Part shown: in pieces, positions 44,046 through 62,601 of the stretch
How the letters are laid out: each line of letters begins with the position of its first letter
How positions within the stretch are numbered: the first letter of the stretch is position 1
Virus record (IMG/VR): IMGVR_UViG_3300021255_003103
Location: 44,954-108,953 of that record
From: a virus
Lineage: Duplodnaviria; Heunggongvirae; Uroviricota; Caudoviricetes
Strand: one strand, 5' to 3'
DNA length: 64,000 nt
The notes under the pieces: model-generated
Seen by the model: only the letters and a program-made list of their open reading frames with translations
The model's database searches: none
Told to the model about the DNA's origin: nothing
Position numbers and translations under genes: made by a program

Positions 44046-45106
44046 ACATAAATACTATTAATATTCAACAATCATTAAATGTTACTGAAGAAATACCTCA
44101 TTCTGTATTAGGTGAAATATATAATATATTTAAAAATCCTAATTTTAATATTAGACAATCAATTTTAAGAGGCAAAGTATCAGTTGATTTTTCATATAGA
44201 AGTTGGATATCTGAATTACAAAATAGATGGAACAGTTTTCAAATTACAGCACGTGATTATTATCAGGACTGGGATGATTTAGCTTTTAGAACTGGTATTT
44301 CTAAACTTTGGGGTGACGGATATGGAGTTACACCAACACAATTAAATAAAAGCTTACAGTTTGGATGCTCTGAAAATGAATGTAAAAATGGTCCATTTTG
44401 GCATAATACTGAAGTTGAAGTTGTAGATCTTAGACCTTTTAAAAATATAGATAAAATAGATAGCGAATGGAATAGATTTAGATTTCATGGGCATAATGAA
44501 AACTGGGATTTTTCACAAATGAAATTAAAAGAAATTTATGTTCAAGCTAATTCAGGTACATTAAAGCCAGATTTTTGGGGTGGAAACGATAATGGAGAAC
44601 ATTTAGAAAAACTATGGGTTGAAGGAAATAAAAATCCAGCAATGCCAATCATGAAATGGAGTATTGCTAATGGATATAACACCGGTAAGACAATAATAGA
44701 TCATTTATATTATAGAAATAATTGTACTGTTGATACTGGAAATCAAATTGAAAGGCCAAATGGAACAAAATTTAAATATTTAAGTGTACTTAGTTATGCT
44801 GGCTGGCAATTTAGAGGATGGTATCCTCAAAATATAATATTAGATAGTCCAATACCAATAATGGTTGGAGAAAAATTGAGTTTTGGTAATGGTTTAAGTA
44901 ATACAACAATATATGTTCCAGATCATCAACTAAATGATTATACTATTTTATATAATCAAGTTGGAGATGATCATTCTGTTAGAATATTTTCATGGACTAC
45001 ATATAATGCAAATTTCGTTAAAATGAGAGAATGGTATAAATATGATGGAATAACTTTATATGATGATCCAACAGCATACATGTTTGCTGATGGTAATAAC
45101 TATTAA
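44042..45106 (+). CDS. Hypothetical structural-module protein (354 aa), translationally coupled to the giant ORF
   Basis: ATGA overlap with the upstream gene; a terminator follows. Confidence 0.5.
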   Translation: MNINTINIQQSLNVTEEIPHSVLGEIYNIFKNPNFNIRQSILRGKVSVDFSYRSWISELQNRWNSFQITARDYYQDWDDLAFRTGISKLWGDGYGVTPTQLNKSLQFGCSENECKNGPFWHNTEVEVVDLRPFKNIDKIDSEWNRFRFHGHNENWDFSQMKLKEIYVQANSGTLKPDFWGGNDNGEHLEKLWVEGNKNPAMPIMKWSIANGYNTGKTIIDHLYYRNNCTVDTGNQIERPNGTKFKYLSVLSYAGWQFRGWYPQNIILDSPIPIMVGEKLSFGNGLSNTTIYVPDHQLNDYTILYNQVGDDHSVRIFSWTTYNANFVKMREWYKYDGITLYDDPTAYMFADGNNY

Positions 45107-54803: not shown

Positions 54804-55159
54804 TTTTCAAATATATCGTCTGTTATTTTTGTTTTTGTACCTTGATATTCCACAAATACTTTAAATATTCCTAAATATTCATTTACATCCATATTATATA
54901 AAACATCATTATTTGTTAATTCAATATTTTCTAATTTATCTAACACTGTACATGGTTTATTAGCATTTTTAGGAACAACTAATACATATGATTTATTGCA
55001 TTTATATGTTATAGGAAATTTATCATTAATAATTGATTCTATTTGATATATAAAATACATTTTATTTTCTGTGTCTTCTCTTTTCATATATATATATTTA
55101 TGTATCATATCTGTCCCTCCATATACATTAACTTTTACATTATTAAAAATTTTATTCAT
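54800..55159 (-). CDS. Hypothetical protein (119 aa)
   Basis: ATG ORF convergent with the tail tube gene; ends at the bidirectional terminator. Confidence 0.45.
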   Translation of the reverse strand: MNKIFNNVKVNVYGGTDMIHKYIYMKREDTENKMYFIYQIESIINDKFPITYKCNKSYVLVVPKNANKPCTVLDKLENIELTNNDVLYNMDVNEYLGIFKVFVEYQGTKTKITDDIFEN

Positions 55160-55208
55160 GTTTAACTATTTTAAATTTATAAATTTAATAAATAATAAAC
55201 AAAATATT

Positions 55209-56030
55209 ATGGCAAAGAAACAATTGACAGTTAAAGAAAAAAAAGAAAGAAAATTACAAAAATTAATGAAAGTGTATGATAATGTAAATGATGAATTACA
55301 TATATCGGGTAAATCAGTAAATGAGCAAATTCATATACTTGTAAATAGATGCTTAGCATTACAATTAGAAATTTGTCAGACATCAGATTCTATTAAGATT
55401 GATGACTTATTAAAAGTTCAAGATATTACAGATATTGATAAGAAGACATATTTGGATTTTGTAAATATATGCGCACTAAAATCAAATGATAAATTAAAAG
55501 AAAAAGCAATTGCAAAATTTGAATCTGATTTTGAAAGTCGTTTATTCATATCAAATTTAAGACATTCATTTTTGGAGTCATATATGTCTGGGTATGATTT
55601 GAAAATTACTGATGAAAGTAATCAAGAATATAAACCATTTGCTGATTATAAATCTGAAGAATTTGAACATATAATGGAAGATTCTGCAAAGAAACGTGAA
55701 TATATTAATAAAGTACTTTATGGGCAATATAAAAAATATGCTAAGGCTGCAGAATATATTACTAAACTTGAATTAAATTATGGAAATTTCAAACAATTAG
55801 TTGACTGGGAATATTATAAAAATGGAGGATATCCAACTCCATCTACACCTGCTAAACTTTGGTCTATATTTAATAGATATAATGAAGCAATAAGATTAAT
55901 GACTAAATATGAATTTACTCAGCAAAATGATCTCAACAAAGAATTCGGATTAGATATTAAATTAAATACACCTGTTCCTGTTAAACATCCTTGGATGATT
56001 AATGAAGAACCAGAAATTGATGAAGAATAA
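55209..56030 (+). CDS. Hypothetical protein (~273 aa; MAKKQLTVKEKK...)
   Basis: The ORF track begins at 55071 (non-ATG), overlapping the divergent gene. The first ATG, at 55209, follows an AT-rich promoter-like spacer. Confidence 0.45.
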   Translation: MAKKQLTVKEKKERKLQKLMKVYDNVNDELHISGKSVNEQIHILVNRCLALQLEICQTSDSIKIDDLLKVQDITDIDKKTYLDFVNICALKSNDKLKEKAIAKFESDFESRLFISNLRHSFLESYMSGYDLKITDESNQEYKPFADYKSEEFEHIMEDSAKKREYINKVLYGQYKKYAKAAEYITKLELNYGNFKQLVDWEYYKNGGYPTPSTPAKLWSIFNRYNEAIRLMTKYEFTQQNDLNKEFGLDIKLNTPVPVKHPWMINEEPEIDEE

Positions 56031-56032
56031 TT

Positions 56033-56208
56033 ATGACTATATTTTTAGTTGGTAGTTGTAGTTTTACAGCGGCAAATTTAGATCCTAAAAGATTAAATAG
56101 TCAAATACAAGAATGTGGATGGTTAATCAATATGGTTGAAGGTATAGGCAAATGGAAAAATCATCCATGTAATTTTATGTACAAAGATCATATTGATTGG
56201 GTGAACTA
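56033..56208 (+). pseudogene. Putative 5' fragment of a gene interrupted by the IS200/IS605 element (MTIFLVGSCSFTAANLDPKRLNSQIQECGW...KDHIDW...)
   Basis: 58-codon ATG ORF ending a few nt inside the IS end. The same frame reopens, with no start codon, exactly at the other IS boundary (58022). Confidence 0.35.
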
Positions 56209-57474
56209 ACACAACGCTAAAGACGTTGTATCTTCCTGCTCAGCAAATTTACTTATAAATTTATTATAAGAAATTTTTACAGGCCCTTTTATACTTGTAT
56301 GATTAGTTCCTAACCTATCAAGTTTATCATATATAAGATAGAAATATATCATGTTATTTGCTGCATGTATGTCTCTATCTTCTTTTGTTTTACATTTAGG
56401 ACATTCAAATATTCTATCTTTTAATTCTAATTCAACTTTAGATCCACATTTATTACAATATTTTGTCGTTGGAAACCATTTGTCTAGTATAACTGTTCTA
56501 TCGCACATACTTAATTTGTACTTTATTCTACCTAATATAGAATGCTGTATTTTAGATCCACTCATTCCATCTTGTCTCCATTCACTTATTTGCTCATCTT
56601 GTATTACTATTGTTTTATTATCATTTAAAATTGAATGAACTATTTTATTTGATATGTCATTTTTCTTGTTATTTATATGGATATACTCTTTTCTGATTTT
56701 CTTAATAGTCTTATATCTGTTGTTTGAGCCTTTTATTTGTTTACTAAGCTTAGCTTGTAATCTTTTAAGTTTCTCACTTTCTTCAATAGATATGTCATAT
56801 TTGATGCCATCAGATAAAGTCAAACTTGTAGACACACCCATATCTATGCCTACTATGTTATTTTTATATTGTTTATTTTTATCTTTATTTATATAACAAG
56901 TTAAACTAATATAATAATCATTTCCATCATATAATAGTTTTGCATTTGCATAATCTATGTTATCGTATTTGTTTAATTGCTTAATCCCGTTAACACGAAT
57001 AAGTTTTTTTATTCCTTGTATTTTAAACTTATTTCCTCTTATGCTATGCGTATTATTATATTGTTTTAATTCAATACAATTAAATTCTGATTTATATTTT
57101 AATTTGCCAACATCATATCCTTTTTTCTTTAATGCAGATAAACCTTTTATTTGGTTTACAATTTGTTTTATTATTCCTTGTTTTAATGCTGAACTAATAT
57201 AAGATATATTTACTTGTATATCATTTCCATACTTATCTTTATGCGTTATTGTGTTTAAATCTTTATAGTCAAAATTAAATACATCTTTATCTAAAAGATA
57301 ATTATATATCCACTTAGCCTCAACAAACTGCATTTTTATCTGTTCGTTTTGCTGTTTAGATAAACTAGATTTATCAACTTTAAACTTAAAGCACTTGCAT
57401 ATCTGAGACTTACGTTTATCATAAGTCTCTCTCATAGTCTGTGCTATATGTTTATTTTTTTCTAATCTATCCAT
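56206..57474 (-). CDS. tnpB: TnpB (IS605 OrfB-family RNA-guided nuclease-like; RuvC-like + Zn ribbon)
   Basis: C-terminal CNKCGSKVE...CPKCKTKEDRDIHAANNM (Zn ribbon plus RuvC-III DxxAAxN) and the central GIDMGVS (RuvC-I). Divergent from tnpA. Confidence 0.75.
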   Translation of the reverse strand: MDRLEKNKHIAQTMRETYDKRKSQICKCFKFKVDKSSLSKQQNEQIKMQFVEAKWIYNYLLDKDVFNFDYKDLNTITHKDKYGNDIQVNISYISSALKQGIIKQIVNQIKGLSALKKKGYDVGKLKYKSEFNCIELKQYNNTHSIRGNKFKIQGIKKLIRVNGIKQLNKYDNIDYANAKLLYDGNDYYISLTCYINKDKNKQYKNNIVGIDMGVSTSLTLSDGIKYDISIEESEKLKRLQAKLSKQIKGSNNRYKTIKKIRKEYIHINNKKNDISNKIVHSILNDNKTIVIQDEQISEWRQDGMSGSKIQHSILGRIKYKLSMCDRTVILDKWFPTTKYCNKCGSKVELELKDRIFECPKCKTKEDRDIHAANNMIYFYLIYDKLDRLGTNHTSIKGPVKISYNKFISKFAEQEDTTSLALC

Positions 57475-57531
57475 TTAATTAATAATAAAATATTATTTTT
57501 AATAAAGTACAAATAATTTTATTTTTTTACT

Positions 57532-57951
57532 ATGGAATTTGAAGATAATAGTAGAACTAGAAATCATTATAAAGGTGATTTAAATTATCATATAATATTT
57601 TCTACTAAATTTAGAAGAAAATGCTTGTCTAATATAGAAAATGAATTATATGATGCATTTAGATATTGTGAATCTAAATCACATTTTAATATTAAAACAA
57701 TGAAACAGGATAAGGATCACATACATTTATTAGTTAATATAAAACCAACATATAGTTTAGGGCAAACTATAAATAGAATGAAACAGATGACAACAAACTA
57801 TTTATATAGAAATGACAAGACTAGAACGTGGCTTAGAAATTTTTACTGGGCTAAACGACTAACATTATGGACACATGGATATTTTGCATCAACTATAGGA
57901 CATGTAAGTGAAGATATAGTATGGAATTATATTGAAAACCAAGGAAAATAA
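57532..57951 (+). CDS. tnpA: IS200-like Y1 (HuH) transposase TnpA
   Basis: HuH motif DHIHLLVNI and catalytic-Tyr region HGYFASTIG; 139 aa. Confidence 0.75.
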   Translation: MEFEDNSRTRNHYKGDLNYHIIFSTKFRRKCLSNIENELYDAFRYCESKSHFNIKTMKQDKDHIHLLVNIKPTYSLGQTINRMKQMTTNYLYRNDKTRTWLRNFYWAKRLTLWTHGYFASTIGHVSEDIVWNYIENQGK

Positions 57952-58021
57952 TATTATTTTAAATTAAAAAATAAGTCAATTCATATACAACACTAAAGAT
58001 GCTGTATCTTTCTGGACTTGA

Positions 58022-58306
58022 TTTGTAAAGAAATATAGAGATTGCCTTGTTGCATATAAAAACAAAGATTATGATAAATGTTTAGAATTATCTGATGAAG
58101 CTGAAAAGATAAAGCCAAGTTTTATATGCGATGAATTATTTATTAATTTCAAAAAACGATTATATGAAAAAGATCCAATTATATATGATAGGTGGTCTCA
58201 TTTAGGTGGTACAACTGCTAATTATTATTTTGTCGATGGTAATTGGTGGAAGTATGAAAATGGTAAAAAAGAAATAGTTGATAAAATACATATAACTTAT
58301 AAATAA
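58022..58306 (+). pseudogene. Putative 3' fragment of the IS-interrupted gene (FVKKYRDCLVAYKNKDYDKC...GNWWKYENGKKEIVDKIHITYK)
   Basis: 94 sense codons with no Met. The frame opens immediately after a TGA that coincides with the IS right boundary, in the same frame (mod 3) as the 56033 fragment. Confidence 0.35.
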
Positions 58307-58307
58307 A

Positions 58308-58381
58308 GTTCCTCTAGCATCATTGGTTAAATCCTATAATATAATTTTATTATTTTATATTATAATGATGCTAGAGGAACA
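58308..58381. repeat. Long inverted repeat (17-bp arms agttcctctagcatcatt / aatgatgctagaggaac) with ~39-nt AT-rich spacer
   Basis: Perfect 17-bp complementary arms between convergent genes. Confidence 0.6.
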
Positions 58382-58431
58382 TTCTACTATATTCTAGACG
58401 ATAATAATATAGTTAATTAATTGTTAAAAAA

Positions 58432-58758
58432 TTAACTATCATTCTGTTGGGTTTCTTTATATTTCTTTTCAATTTCTATATTATGTTTTGTAATATTCAT
58501 ACCTATAATATCATTCATATCAAATCCTAAATCATATGCTATATTACAAATATTATTTAATATATCCCCAATAGATATTGCTGCTTTAGTTTTTGTTATT
58601 TTCGTAAAACTTCCATGATCTTTTATTAGTGCATCATTTAATTTATTTGCTAATGATCCAACATTATTCTGTAAGTCCAATATAACTGAAAATGGACCAA
58701 GTTCTATTGGATAATCTATATATTCACGAATTGTTTTTTGATAATCATTAATTTCCAT
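58432..58758 (-). CDS. MazG-like nucleotide pyrophosphohydrolase-fold protein (second copy)
   Basis: EYIDYPIELGPFSVILDLQNNVGSLANK ... ISIGDILNNICNIAYDLGFD resembles the MazG/NTP-PPase helical core (E-x-x-E ... E-x-x-D). Confidence 0.5.
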   Translation of the reverse strand: MEINDYQKTIREYIDYPIELGPFSVILDLQNNVGSLANKLNDALIKDHGSFTKITKTKAAISIGDILNNICNIAYDLGFDMNDIIGMNITKHNIEIEKKYKETQQNDS

Positions 58759-58775
58759 ATTACTTAAACTTTTAT

Positions 58776-59153
58776 TTAATCATTATACCAACTATCTTTC
58801 ATATATCTTTGTGGATACTGATTTATGTTTTCTCTATTATCTCCATTACCATGAACAGTATTTGTTTCTTGACGTTCTTTAACTTTTATTATTCCAATTT
58901 TCATTATATCTTCTAAAGAACATCCCATATCGTCAGCAGCAGCCCATATATACCATAAAACATCTGCTAATTCTTTTTTTATTGCATATTTTGTTTTATC
59001 ATCAAAAATTTGATTATTATCCCTTAAACATTTTTTAACTTTTTCTGCAGCTTCACCAGCTTCACCATTTAATCCAAGTATCGGATATATAATAGGCAAG
59101 CAATCATATACTTTTGATGATTTCATGAATGTTTCATATTCTTTAAGTATCAT
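58776..59153 (-). CDS. mazG: MazG-family nucleotide pyrophosphohydrolase
   Basis: LGLNGEAGEAAEKVKK ... KELADVLWYIWAAADDMGCSLEDIM matches the MazG EExxE / ELxDxLW motifs. Confidence 0.65.
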   Translation of the reverse strand: MILKEYETFMKSSKVYDCLPIIYPILGLNGEAGEAAEKVKKCLRDNNQIFDDKTKYAIKKELADVLWYIWAAADDMGCSLEDIMKIGIIKVKERQETNTVHGNGDNRENINQYPQRYMKDSWYND

Positions 59154-59377
59154 ATATGTTCATAATTATTTATTTTACATTTTACTAATGCGTTTGTTTC
59201 ATGCTTATCTATTTCACATCTACCATTATAATTACCAAATCTTCCAGCAACTGGCCCATAATCATTATAATGTTTACATGAATAGCACATATTTGTATAA
59301 TCATTTGGATTTAATGAACATAGCTCTCTAAGATCACTCATAATTGCATTTATATATTTATATTTGATAATATCCAA
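59150..59377 (-). CDS. Small Cys-rich protein (CYSCKHY...C), CxxC family copy 2
   Basis: CYSCKHYNDYGPVAGRFGNYNGRCE shares its pattern with 62777..63007 and 6731..6880. Confidence 0.45.
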   Translation of the reverse strand: MDIIKYKYINAIMSDLRELCSLNPNDYTNMCYSCKHYNDYGPVAGRFGNYNGRCEIDKHETNALVKCKINNYEHI

Positions 59378-61229
59378 TTTTAAAAGGATATTGTTCTTCT
59401 GTATATTTTTTACATTTTGCTAATCCTTGTAAATAAATTTTATTAGATATATATTGTTGGTTAAATACATCAATTACATCATATAAAACAAATTCATCTT
59501 TCAAATTAGATAATCCTAGTCCTCTTCCTATTGATTGCATATTGATTACATTAGACTTAAATGATTCAAACAATACACCAAAACAAAGATTCGCCAGTGT
59601 GATTCCAGTTGACAAGGTACCGTAGCTTGCAATTAATATACAATCATTATTTTCTTTAAGCATTTGTTTTATTTGTTCACGTTTCTTTGGAGTTACTGCT
59701 CCAGTAATTGTATCTATATGTCTATTTGGAAATTTTTGTTTTATAATATCAGTTAAATAATATATATATTCTGTATGATGTGCCAAAATTAATGTGTTCT
59801 TATCACATTTAGGTAATATTTCATTACATAAATAATCAACACGTTCTGTCATAAAATGTGTCATCATTCTTTCAATAACTAATAAATTAGTTGATGTTGA
59901 CATTTTAATAATATTTTTAAGTACTTTAATATAATCTAATTGATATTTAATAAACATTGTATCAGCACGTGATTTTAATTTGAATTTACGTTTAATCTTA
60001 TCTAATTCTTTTTGTGTTTCATTATCGGCTAAGTCTGTATAAATACCAGTTTGTAAAAACAATTTTGCTTTAATATCTTCAATACCAGGAGGTAATGATT
60101 TAACATATTGTATTTGAAATTCTGGATCAAATAATTTTATTTTTTTCTTTTGCTCAACTCCTTTTTTATTTACAATAGTTTCATATTGAAATTCTGATAA
60201 TCCATATTCCGCACACCTAATAAATGTTTCTAATTGTTTTTTTAAGTCTTTATATTCTAATCTTACCTGTAAAATATTGACTTTTGAAATATAACCTTCA
60301 TCCATTAGATATCTTGGCTTAATTTCTTGAATTGTGGCGCCAAGTAATGATTTAAGACAATAATATTCAATTGTTTTCTTTTTAGGAATTGTTCCAGTCA
60401 TACCGAAAGCTATCTTTACTTCTTTCATAAATGGCTGACTTATAATATTCTTTATTTGATTTGCTGTTGCACGATGTGTTTCATCTACAAAAACAATATC
60501 ATAGTCATTAAAGAAATTAGGATTATATTTATTATTTGGTTTACTTCTTGTTGGCTTTTCAATGAACTTAATCAATGACTGAAAAGTACCTATTGTAAGA
60601 TTAGCTGACTCAACTAGTTTACCACCACCCCATACACATTCCGTATTGAAAAATTCTGCATATTCTTTGAAGTCATTATATCCTTGTGTTACTAACTGAA
60701 TTGAAGGAACAATCATTAATATTTTCTTTGCCCCTAAATATTCAATACAATATCTAAAAATCATATAAGCAATAAGAGTCTTACCAGCACGTGTTGCTAA
60801 TTCTGAAACTGATTGTTTCCACTGTAATATTTTATATGCAGCTTCATATTGATAAGGGCGTGGTGTATATTTTAATCCCCAGCTATCAACTATAGTCTTA
60901 AATTGCTCAAATGTATGTGGTATGTCTCTTTTGAAAAAATTAGAATGATCTAATAAACCATCAAATGCAATATCGTTATCTTTAAAGAATCTATATATTT
61001 CTTGCCAAAGCCCTATTGCACAATAATAAACAGTTTGACCAGATTGCTGTACATAATCAAATAAAAAGTCTTGTGTATATGGAGGTCCACTATATGTTGG
61101 TAAATAACATATAGGGTCGACTAAATTCAAATGTTCTTTAAGTTTCTTTAAGTTTATTTCATCATATTCAGAATCATATTTAAGAAATAAATATCGTGTA
61201 TCTTTTTCAGTGAATATAAAATGTATCAT
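59358..61229 (-). CDS. SF2 DNA/RNA helicase (UvsW/DEAD-DEAH-like)
   Basis: Q-like motif RPYQYEAAYKI; Walker A ATRAGKTLIA; DExH VFVDETH; later helicase motifs (SYGTLSTGITL, QSIGRGLG). Confidence 0.75.
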   Translation of the reverse strand: MIHFIFTEKDTRYLFLKYDSEYDEINLKKLKEHLNLVDPICYLPTYSGPPYTQDFLFDYVQQSGQTVYYCAIGLWQEIYRFFKDNDIAFDGLLDHSNFFKRDIPHTFEQFKTIVDSWGLKYTPRPYQYEAAYKILQWKQSVSELATRAGKTLIAYMIFRYCIEYLGAKKILMIVPSIQLVTQGYNDFKEYAEFFNTECVWGGGKLVESANLTIGTFQSLIKFIEKPTRSKPNNKYNPNFFNDYDIVFVDETHRATANQIKNIISQPFMKEVKIAFGMTGTIPKKKTIEYYCLKSLLGATIQEIKPRYLMDEGYISKVNILQVRLEYKDLKKQLETFIRCAEYGLSEFQYETIVNKKGVEQKKKIKLFDPEFQIQYVKSLPPGIEDIKAKLFLQTGIYTDLADNETQKELDKIKRKFKLKSRADTMFIKYQLDYIKVLKNIIKMSTSTNLLVIERMMTHFMTERVDYLCNEILPKCDKNTLILAHHTEYIYYLTDIIKQKFPNRHIDTITGAVTPKKREQIKQMLKENNDCILIASYGTLSTGITLANLCFGVLFESFKSNVINMQSIGRGLGLSNLKDEFVLYDVIDVFNQQYISNKIYLQGLAKCKKYTEEQYPFKIGYYQI

Positions 61230-61377
61230 TATAAATTTATGTAAATATAAATATTAATTTAGATTAATTTTAACAATTATTTAATGTATAAAAAACTATT
61301 TTAATTATTTTTATTTATTTACAATTAAATACAGTTTAATTTTGTAAGAATAATTAAATTATTATAACTTCATTCTA

Positions 61378-62601
61378 TTAGCGAAATGAAATTGAATTAA
61401 TTTTTATTCTAACTGGGTTATACACATACCTCTTATCTGCTGGTACTATATTTAGCACATCACAGTTACATTTTTGTATACCTAATCTCATTATATTGAA
61501 TGATCCGTTTACATCAGCATTTATCTTATGTCCATATTTTGATTTAAATAATCCACGTTTGATTCGTTTTCCAAAATAAGTTTTATGCTGACATATTTTT
61601 TCGTTATCAATAAAACTACATTTAGATGTATATGCTTCATTTAGTAAAATCATTTTAATACCTGCTAATTTACATTTATAGTCTAACATACTTATAAGTA
61701 AATTATATGGTATAGCAACAAAATTTTGATTATTAGTTTTTCCTATGTTAATACCTTCTTTCCAACCAAAATTCTTACCTACAAATAATGTATTAAGATT
61801 GTTTGTTTCCATGTATATAACAATAAGATGACTAACTTTATGCATATAATCTTTTATCTTATTATTTCGTCTATAATTTATTCTTTTTATTCTATTGCTT
61901 GTTTTCCTATTTTTATTTAGCTTAGATTGTAATAATGCTTTTCTTTTATTGTAAAAATGATTTATATTTTTTAATTTTTTACCATCATATATAACAGATT
62001 GACATACGTTTGAAGTTAATGTTACTAAATTATTCAATCCTAAATCTAAAGCTGCATATTGTTTATTATCACATTTTAACTTATATTCTTTATTATATAT
62101 CAATTCAATTACTATATGATTTCCTTTATGTATAATTCTAACTATTTGCACATTTAGATTAGTCTCAATGTCAATTTTATTGTTATTATTTATCTTTAAT
62201 GACAATACATTGTTTTTTAATTTAAAACATTGATTTGTATATGTAACTATATTTCTTCCATTTTCTTTATCTTTATATTTAGGTAATCTAATTTTCTTAC
62301 CTTTCATTTTTGGCGATTTCAATACATTATAAAAAGAAACATATTGTTTATCTATTTGTCTTAATACTTGCTGGCTACATTGAGCATAAGGTAAAGATCT
62401 ATAATCAATTTGATTCTCTTTAGATAATAATGTATTAAGTTCATAATAAGACAGATATTTATTTGTATTTTTATAATATTGTCTTATTTGATATAAAGCA
62501 TAGTTATACAAATTCTTAGATTTAAAACACAACTCATCAAGCATAGAATACCATCTATGCTTATTATTTATAATAATTTGTTGTGTTAATTGCATTTTCA
62601 T
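61378..62601 (-). CDS. tnpB: Solo TnpB-like protein (IS605 OrfB family) without an adjacent tnpA
   Basis: RuvC-I AALDLGLNNLVT; RuvC-II NEAYTSKCS; RuvC-III NADVNGSFNI; Cys cluster; 407 aa. Confidence 0.65.
   Translation of the reverse strand: MKMQLTQQIIINNKHRWYSMLDELCFKSKNLYNYALYQIRQYYKNTNKYLSYYELNTLLSKENQIDYRSLPYAQCSQQVLRQIDKQYVSFYNVLKSPKMKGKKIRLPKYKDKENGRNIVTYTNQCFKLKNNVLSLKINNNNKIDIETNLNVQIVRIIHKGNHIVIELIYNKEYKLKCDNKQYAALDLGLNNLVTLTSNVCQSVIYDGKKLKNINHFYNKRKALLQSKLNKNRKTSNRIKRINYRRNNKIKDYMHKVSHLIVIYMETNNLNTLFVGKNFGWKEGINIGKTNNQNFVAIPYNLLISMLDYKCKLAGIKMILLNEAYTSKCSFIDNEKICQHKTYFGKRIKRGLFKSKYGHKINADVNGSFNIMRLGIQKCNCDVLNIVPADKRYVYNPVRIKINSISFR

Follow-up and report, generated by a model that had tools for sequence, protein, structure and literature searches.

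An uncultured jumbo phage carries an apparently functional IS200/IS605-family insertion sequence within a predicted gene for a pyrimidine-dimer glycosylase

A 64,000-nucleotide stretch of an uncultured tailed virus (IMG/VR record IMGVR_UViG_3300021255_003103, positions 44,954 to 108,953; hereafter the window, numbered from its first nucleotide) was analyzed. The window very probably carries a complete and apparently functional insertion sequence (IS) of the IS200/IS605 family, inserted 3′ of a TTTAC pentanucleotide of the minus strand and splitting a predicted pyrimidine-dimer glycosylase gene after codon 56. A 58-amino acid open reading frame (ORF) and a startless frame of 94 codons are thereby explained as the halves of one inactivated repair gene, and the DNA between them, positions 56201-58024, as a mobile element. 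An initial annotation, made from the letters of the window, had proposed an element with tnpA and tnpB genes apparently inserted into a small gene. All features that it gave are present, with coordinates exact or within 1 nt, and the element carries every defining feature of the IS200/IS605 family that can be checked in a sequence. Coordinates of the features are collected in Table 1.

The left ORF (56033..56209) starts with an ATG and encodes 58 amino acids; its last two sense codons and its TAA stop codon (56207-56209) are IS sequence. At the right boundary of the element, 94 sense codons extend from a TGA (58019-58021) to the stop codon at 58304-58306, and none of them is ATG, GTG or TTG. 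Both frames were thus found as they had been described. They also agree modulo 3, as had been stated, because the element is 1824 bp (3 x 608) long. A search with the joined fragments returned 61 uninterrupted single-ORF homologues of 143-167 amino acids, most of them 143-150 amino acids long. The best intact homologue, P0001 (150 amino acids), is 93% identical to the joined fragments. Among reference Bacteroides phages, a single tblastn segment covers residues 17-127 and spans the junction. The PF03013 domain is precomputed for 58 of the 61 listed homologues, and by its domain content the interrupted gene is a Pyr_excise gene, predicted to encode a pyrimidine-dimer glycosylase similar to T4 endonuclease V. 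Residues M1, T2 and E27 are invariant in the glycosylase alignment (A1); T4 endonuclease V has an N-terminal Thr2 and a conserved Glu23.

Removal of positions 56201-58024 in silico yields an intact ORF of 450 nt. Compared with an intact homologue, the joined gene has 23 synonymous and 9 non-synonymous codon differences and neither a frameshift nor a stop codon, and therefore both halves still look coding. The two fragments are one gene, as had been supposed, and the homologues contain them joined. The join predicted in the initial annotation, KDHIDW to FVKKYRD, was correct except for one residue: homologues run ...KDHIDW/VKKYRD..., and the F is not part of the gene. The first right-hand codon, TTT, is IS sequence, and the gene resumes at 58025 with GTA (Val57).

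The boundaries of the element were set by aligning empty-site DNA from five loci (L001, L003, L005, L053 and L054) with the window flanks. Alignment of the L001, L003 and L005 empty sites places the insertion point between GATTGG and GTAAAG, with a 2-nt ambiguity in the boundary because GT is present on both sides. The empty sites carry one TTTAC, unduplicated, with the right flank directly after it. The minus strand is the top (active) strand of the element, and the order on it is left end, tnpA (reversed), tnpB and right end. Read on this strand, the left end is tttcTTTAC/AAATCAAGTCCAG-AAAG-ATACAGCA-TCTTTAG-TGTTGTAT... and the right end is ...CAG-GAAG-ATACAACG-TCTTTAG-CGTTGTGT-TAGTTCAC/ccaatcaatatg, where slashes mark the transposon boundaries.

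Both ends contain a 28-nt motif. Its two copies (56211-56238 and 57987-58014) form a direct repeat, lie in the same orientation and are 86% identical. With up to 3 mismatches allowed, the motif occurs just twice in the 64-kb window and not once in 100 shuffles; the presence of two copies is not due to chance. Within the window the motif is found only at the two ends of the element, and in relatives it always adjoins tnpB or tnpA; no copy was found away from these genes. Each copy holds a hairpin. This arrangement, with subterminal hairpins on the same strand and no terminal inverted repeats, is the IS200/IS605 signature that the initial annotation had recognized. It had also placed the window-left hairpin within the final codons of tnpB, at the right end of the element, where the omega RNAs of TnpB systems are encoded. 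We found the stop codon of tnpB 5 nt from the transposon end, and the right hairpin therefore lies inside the tnpB coding sequence. Among 17 relatives, the right subterminal hairpin (IP_R) shows changes on both sides at 6 of 10 pairs, with 98.8% of cells paired. Stems of the left subterminal hairpin (IP_L) also differ between relatives yet pair (ACAACA/TGTTGT, ACAATA/TATTGT and TTTTACA/TGTAAAA).

The ends were compared with those of IS608 (ISHp608) from Helicobacter pylori. IS608 inserts 3′ of TTAC; it is cleaved 19 nt from the left hairpin on its 5′ side and 10 nt from the right hairpin on its 3′ side (PMC3201880, PMC5934647). Its guide tetranucleotides, located just 5′ of each hairpin, are AAAG at the left end (G_L, with cleavage site C_L TTAC) and GAAT at the right end (G_R, with cleavage site C_R TCAA), with pairing of G1 to C2 and of G2 to C1 (PMC3201880, PMC5934647). 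The window element has the target core TTAC and the left guide AAAG in common with IS608. Its left cleavage site is likewise found upstream of the left hairpin, and its right one downstream of the right hairpin. The spacings are very close to those of IS608 (19 and 10 nt when the stem is taken as 6 bp; 17 and 8 nt for a stem of 8 bp, the length favoured by covariation), and insertion is seamless, without target duplication. Guide and cleavage-site pairs AAAG/TTAC, GAAG/TCAC, GAAA/TCAT and ATAG/ATAC all fit the IS608 rule (G1:C2, G2:C1, G4:C4). The last two come from relatives: a subfamily with G_R GAAA has C_R TCAT, and one copy apparently inserted after ATAC has G_L ATAG. Every main-lineage copy ends in ...TTCAC.

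The window element differs from IS608 in several respects. Its right site is TCAC with guide GAAG, compared to TCAA with GAAT in IS608; in its lineage, T at −5 is retained as a fifth target base (8 of 8 insertions); its left end has an additional stem (AAGTCCA/TGGACTT) outside the hairpin; protein identities are low; and its tnpA and tnpB are divergent, whereas the IS608 pair points one way. In gene organization the element resembles IS605 of H. pylori, with divergent tnpA and tnpB between the ends and the 3′ end of tnpB at the right end. The target of IS605 is TTTAA(C), compared to TTTAC here. As judged from these comparisons, the element is of IS605 type in its divergent gene order and IS608-like in its ends and TnpA.

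The outer stem AAGTCCA...TGGACTT brackets the left-end hairpin (~57970-58020, minus strand). The window copy has one mismatch, and the stem is also present in L011. In L012 and L021 it is changed on both sides with pairing kept (AAGCCCA...TGGGCTT). For IS608, an accessory structure at the left end has been discussed, and this stem may be its counterpart.

Among solved structures, IS608 TnpA (2a6m, E 1.9e-13) is the best match to TnpA of the window, and the HUH motif and tyrosine of the two proteins align. The HUH motif is H63-I-H65, and Y133, part of a C-terminal YIENQ, is aligned to Y127 of IS608. The initial annotation had called a divergent HUH TnpA from the motifs HIHLL...GYFAS. Its assignment as a Y1 HUH transposase was borne out, whereas the nucleophile, by this alignment, is Y133 and not the tyrosine of GYFAS, which is a family signature.

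TnpB has the zinc ribbon (C340xxC...C358xxC) and the RuvC residues ascribed to it; the acidic residues are D211, D293/E294 (in a QDEQI motif) and D368. It could be aligned to ISDra2 TnpB from Deinococcus radiodurans (structures 8h1j and 8exa, E 6e-12). Domain order is the same, the RuvC D..E..D residues and the zinc ribbon are alignable, D211 is opposite D191, and D368 is opposite D361. As in ISDra2, the predicted omega RNA would be encoded across the 3′ end of tnpB and the right end, and the predicted transposon-associated motif (TAM) is identical to the transposon target site. The predicted TAM of the window element is, however, TTTAC instead of TTGAT, its RuvC-II motif is QDEQI instead of TEHL, and its tnpB ORF, unlike that of ISDra2, includes the right-end hairpin and stops only 5 nt short of the transposon end, with the omega RNA predicted from sequence.

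The region 56201..56420 folds better than 200 of 200 shuffles (z = −4.18). When the minimum-free-energy fold was projected on 17 relatives, covariation was clear for the terminal hairpin only and weak for one internal helix. A full omega-RNA scaffold is not claimed, since helices other than the terminal hairpin show little covariation. From the position rule for TnpB (PMC8612924; PMC13565253), the predicted TnpB target is TTTAC followed by the 20 nt after the right end (CCAATCAATATGATCTTTGT). The glycosylase gene of a related phage contig from IMG/VR, L054, has 82% nucleotide identity, and its empty site consists of exactly TTTAC plus the predicted 20-nt guide. The L001 empty site (CCAGTCGAT...) differs at guide positions 4 and 7, and the L053 site at positions 14 and 19.

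Loci of IS relatives were drawn from protein look-ups, IMG/VR and JGI metagenomes. At E ≤ 0.001, TnpB gave 2384 matches, and identities among the best 120 of them are 69-96%. Many TnpB relatives are on contigs of ~1.8 kb, which is expected because repeats break assemblies. At least 13 independent insertions have the same ends, TTTAC/A... and ...GTTAGTTCAC/, and different right flanks. A sister subfamily adds five more right flanks, which follow ...GCTAGTTCAT/. The insertions seen are all at different sites. Several independent insertions are flanked by homologues of other window genes, and therefore the IS lineage occupies different places in related phages. Where flanking genes of lineage members could be inspected, the contexts are phage-like, and nearly all members are in AT-rich DNA. 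No cellular copy was found: searches of 185,579 species-representative cellular genomes with peptide patterns for TnpB and with a degenerate 32-nt pattern for the right end gave 0 matches, a weak negative because IS copies often drop out of metagenome-assembled genomes. A search for the window's own IS junction gave no match in IMG/VR.

Some members of the lineage have unusual structures. In L007-L010 (ERZ932213 and others), a TnpB 96% identical to that of the window is accompanied by both ends and no tnpA, between recA-like and clpX-like phage genes; by its gene content this copy is a tnpA-less derivative, which would need TnpA in trans. L024 contains two lineage tnpB genes in tandem (~1266 and ~3001), whose products are 70% and 86% identical to the window TnpB, and the 160-kb contig Ga0310695_10000194 (L020, L021) contains two lineage copies 80 kb apart. 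The lineage therefore multiplies within single phage genomes. In L024 and L033, tnpB is interrupted by an insert of ~35 nt, TATAATTCTATTTCACTTCGTTCATAGAATGAAGT, with TATAAT on both flanks (alignment A3, columns 108-142), and in L022 another insert occupies this position. The ~35-nt insert shortens the TnpB of P0111 to 390 amino acids.

Several points weigh against reading the element as complete and functional. Guide positions depend on an inferred hairpin foot, and one divergent copy (L024, position 1185) shows an imperfect fit to the pairing rule. The sole clearly covarying helix of the putative omega RNA is the terminal hairpin, which also serves as a TnpA DNA site, and therefore the RNA scaffold is without independent support. 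An Rfam scan of positions 55500-58800 (E ≤ 1, both strands) matched no omega-RNA family. HMMER puts Q292 opposite the RuvC-II glutamate of ISDra2 TnpB, E278, in an uncertain register. Finally, an exact look-up of the 273-amino acid protein encoded upstream returned only IS-carrying loci or contigs ending at the IS. It yielded no allele that lacks the IS and has near-identical flanks, so any recent mobility at this position is conjectural.

The last two points, the glutamine aligned with the canonical RuvC-II position and the failure to find the same phage lineage with an IS-free allele, speak for an alternative in which tnpB encodes a domesticated, nuclease-dead regulator (TldR-like) or is a decaying relic, and in which the element would be immobile and without guided cleavage. 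We consider this unlikely. The sequence QDEQISEW is invariant down to relatives at 36-47% identity, with D and E beside the Q. A shift of 2 residues sets D-E-Q-I opposite T-E-H-L, so E294 is likely the RuvC-II glutamate, and it is the invariance that points to a catalytic role of E294 or D293. Moreover, D211, D368, the zinc ribbon, the HUH motif and tyrosine of TnpA and both ends are intact, and the lineage has inserted at many different places, twice in the case of one contig.

Much less probable still is an IStron-like or other self-splicing insertion, which would be removed from RNA so that the glycosylase is still made. While the element length is a multiple of 3 and IS605-derived IStrons are known within genes, the top (tnpB) strand of the element is antisense to the host gene, in-frame stops (TAA 56207 and TGA 58019) bracket the element, and no intron or ribozyme family was found in the Rfam scan on either strand. 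An IStron has a group I intron at its 5′ end, oriented as the interrupted gene; here, the left terminus and the tnpA stop codon are just 73 nt apart, too close for an intron to fit between them.

An assembly chimera, with the contig of a repeated IS wrongly joined to a phage scaffold, deserves next to no credence. Many relatives are isolated contigs of the kind typical of assembly-breaking repeats, but the same interrupted allele, with the same junction (the truncated 58-amino acid ORF, then tnpB), was assembled independently in at least 3 samples, and junctions that are nucleotide-exact at TTTAC with a canonical right end are not expected from a chimera. That the flanking ORFs are two separate small genes with the IS in an intergenic spacer, as the ATG and stop of the left ORF might suggest, is refuted by the homologues, which cover both fragments with the alignment unbroken at the junction, by the ORF restored upon deletion and by the missing start codon of the right fragment.

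For an intact IS200/IS605 element of this kind, the following scheme can be proposed. By homology to IS608, TnpA would bind both subterminal hairpins on the minus strand and cleave after TTTAC and TTCAC, where AAAG and GAAG would pair with TTAC and TCAC. A single-stranded IS circle would be released, and the donor would be sealed seamlessly, with restoration of the glycosylase gene. The circle would then re-insert 3′ of another TTTAC in single-stranded DNA ('peel and paste'). The window element would have reached the glycosylase gene by this route. TnpB would be loaded with an omega RNA from the tnpB 3′ end and the right end, reading ~20 nt into the flank (CCAATCAATATGATCTTTGT), and would cut the IS-free site, TTTAC followed by that same sequence. 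Recombinational repair would return the IS or copy it into a co-infecting relative. The TnpB part of the scheme is based on ISDra2 and Geobacillus elements (PMC8612924; 10.1101/2023.03.14.532601; review PMC13565253). We infer from these comparisons that TnpA and TnpB may be currently active and that an omega RNA may be made.

A more speculative reading, which we put forward tentatively and regard as possible at best, is that the IS lineage lives mainly in a jumbo-phage clade and that TnpB with its omega RNA would act as a homing or competition nuclease between co-infecting phages, converting or excluding relatives with an empty site. It is considered because the L054 target matches exactly and because the lineage appears restricted to phage contigs. 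Homing endonucleases of T4 act comparably on co-infecting phages. Since the observed insertions are all at different sites, ordinary transposition is favoured over homing as the main route of spread. In one review, 'transposon non-restorative homing' is described for co-infecting phages as theoretical (PMC13565253). If TnpB does cut the empty site in related phages, the window element would be a natural phage example of this process.

Elements of the IS200/IS605 family have been described in virulent phages before. ISCaje1-4, which include tnpB-only and tnpA+tnpB forms, are found in the large myophages CP220 and CPt10 of Campylobacter, whose closely related, near-identical genomes carry them at different positions (PMC2853527). 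The window element is from another phage clade and habitat (apparently rumen or animal gut, by sample names), and its insertion demonstrably splits a conserved gene, with empty sites at hand. A tblastn search found tnpB in 314 reference phage records, and the reference-phage matches to the window TnpB are at most 31% identical. With IS605-family elements and tnpB already documented in phages, the finding is therefore ordinary, though well resolved. The locus provides a natural data set of exact ends, many insertions, empty sites, covariation of guides and cleavage sites, and a predicted TAM and guide. With it, direct tests of what TnpA and TnpB do in a phage-borne IS605-type element become feasible.

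Table 1. Features of the interrupted glycosylase locus (positions in the window)
Feature	Position	Strand	Basis
5′ fragment of the predicted Pyr_excise gene, codons 1-56	56033..56200	+	PF03013 1.9e-6, profile positions 1-57 of 81
Predicted omega-RNA guide portion, CCAATCAATATGATCTTTGT, directly 3′ of right end	56181..56200	-	TnpB position rule (PMC8612924; PMC13565253)
IS200/IS605-family element, very probably complete, 1824 bp	56201..58024	-	Empty-site alignment and at least 13 independent insertions with the same ends
Right cleavage site C_R, TCAC, final 4 nt of the element	56201..56204	-	Pairs with G_R GAAG by the IS608 rule
Putative omega-RNA scaffold, approximate, tnpB 3′ end to right end, predicted extent	56201..56420	-	Fold compared with shuffles
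tnpB, 422 aa, predicted RNA-guided RuvC nuclease	56206..57474	-	Pfam OrfB_IS605 1.8e-13, Cas12f1-like_TNB 8.6e-13
Right subterminal hairpin IP_R, ATACAACG-TCTTTAG-CGTTGTGT	56209..56231	-	Covariation across 17 relatives
Right guide tetranucleotide G_R, GAAG, directly 5′ of hairpin foot	56232..56235	-	Sequence; covaries with C_R
tnpA, 139 aa, Y1 HUH transposase	57532..57951	+	Pfam Y1_Tnp 3.3e-27, whole profile
Left subterminal hairpin IP_L, ATACAGCA-TCTTTAG-TGTTGTAT, one G.T pair	57985..58007	-	Repeat and relatives
Left guide tetranucleotide G_L, AAAG, same as IS608 G_L	58008..58011	-	Sequence
3′ fragment of the predicted Pyr_excise gene, codons 57-149 and stop, no own start codon	58025..58306	+	Homologue and empty-site alignment
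Target and left cleavage site, TTTAC	58025..58029	-	5′ of left end in 8 of 8 main-lineage insertions
Inverted repeat I11, 20 nt, 95% complementary, terminator-like, outside the IS	58305..58383	.	Inverted repeat

The insertion lies in the genome of an uncultured AT-rich jumbo myophage. Window genes include those for a head maturation protease, a major head protein and a tail sheath protein, and the G+C content is 20-33%. The nearest reference relatives of the capsid protein are from jumbo phages, at 31-37% identity; they include an uncultured 462-kb phage, Tenacibaculum phage pT24, Sphingomonas phage PAU and Prevotella Lak phages. Contigs that carry intact glycosylase homologues reach 442 kb, and one of 410 kb comes from IMG/VR. 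Megablast of window positions 55000-59500 against reference phages gave no match, and there is therefore no close cultured relative. A promoter and terminator scan of the locus gave nothing above chance level, and no promoter is claimed.

Gene orientation and GC skew switch sign near the IS, with plus-strand genes up to ~56 kb and minus-strand genes after ~58.4 kb. Between the split gene and a convergent minus-strand gene of 108 amino acids lies the inverted repeat at 58305-58383, which has the look of a bidirectional terminator. The only match in the Rfam scan falls on this palindrome; it is a weak hit to a plant miRNA family and is ascribed to chance. Downstream are two small genes for MazG/dUTPase-like pyrophosphohydrolases (58432..59153, minus strand) and a gene for a 623-amino acid ResIII/DEAD helicase (59358..61229, minus strand). 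In the IS-free locus L001, the helicase homologue is upstream of the glycosylase gene on the same strand, with a D12 methyltransferase gene between them. Given this different helicase placement, the locus has been rearranged between relatives.

The window contains a second, unrelated tnpB gene (61378..62601, minus strand). Its 407-amino acid product has OrfB_IS605 and TNB domains and is 27% identical to the first TnpB, and there is no adjoining tnpA. Located ~3 kb from the tnpA-tnpB element, it probably represents a solo element of the IS1341 type. Its stop codon region contains a hairpin-like motif, TTTCATTTCGCTAATAGAATGAAGT (61367-61391), which is unique in the window. The ~35-nt insert in tnpB of L024 and L033 closely resembles the 3′ end motif of this second tnpB locus and may be a footprint or mini-element of its IS.

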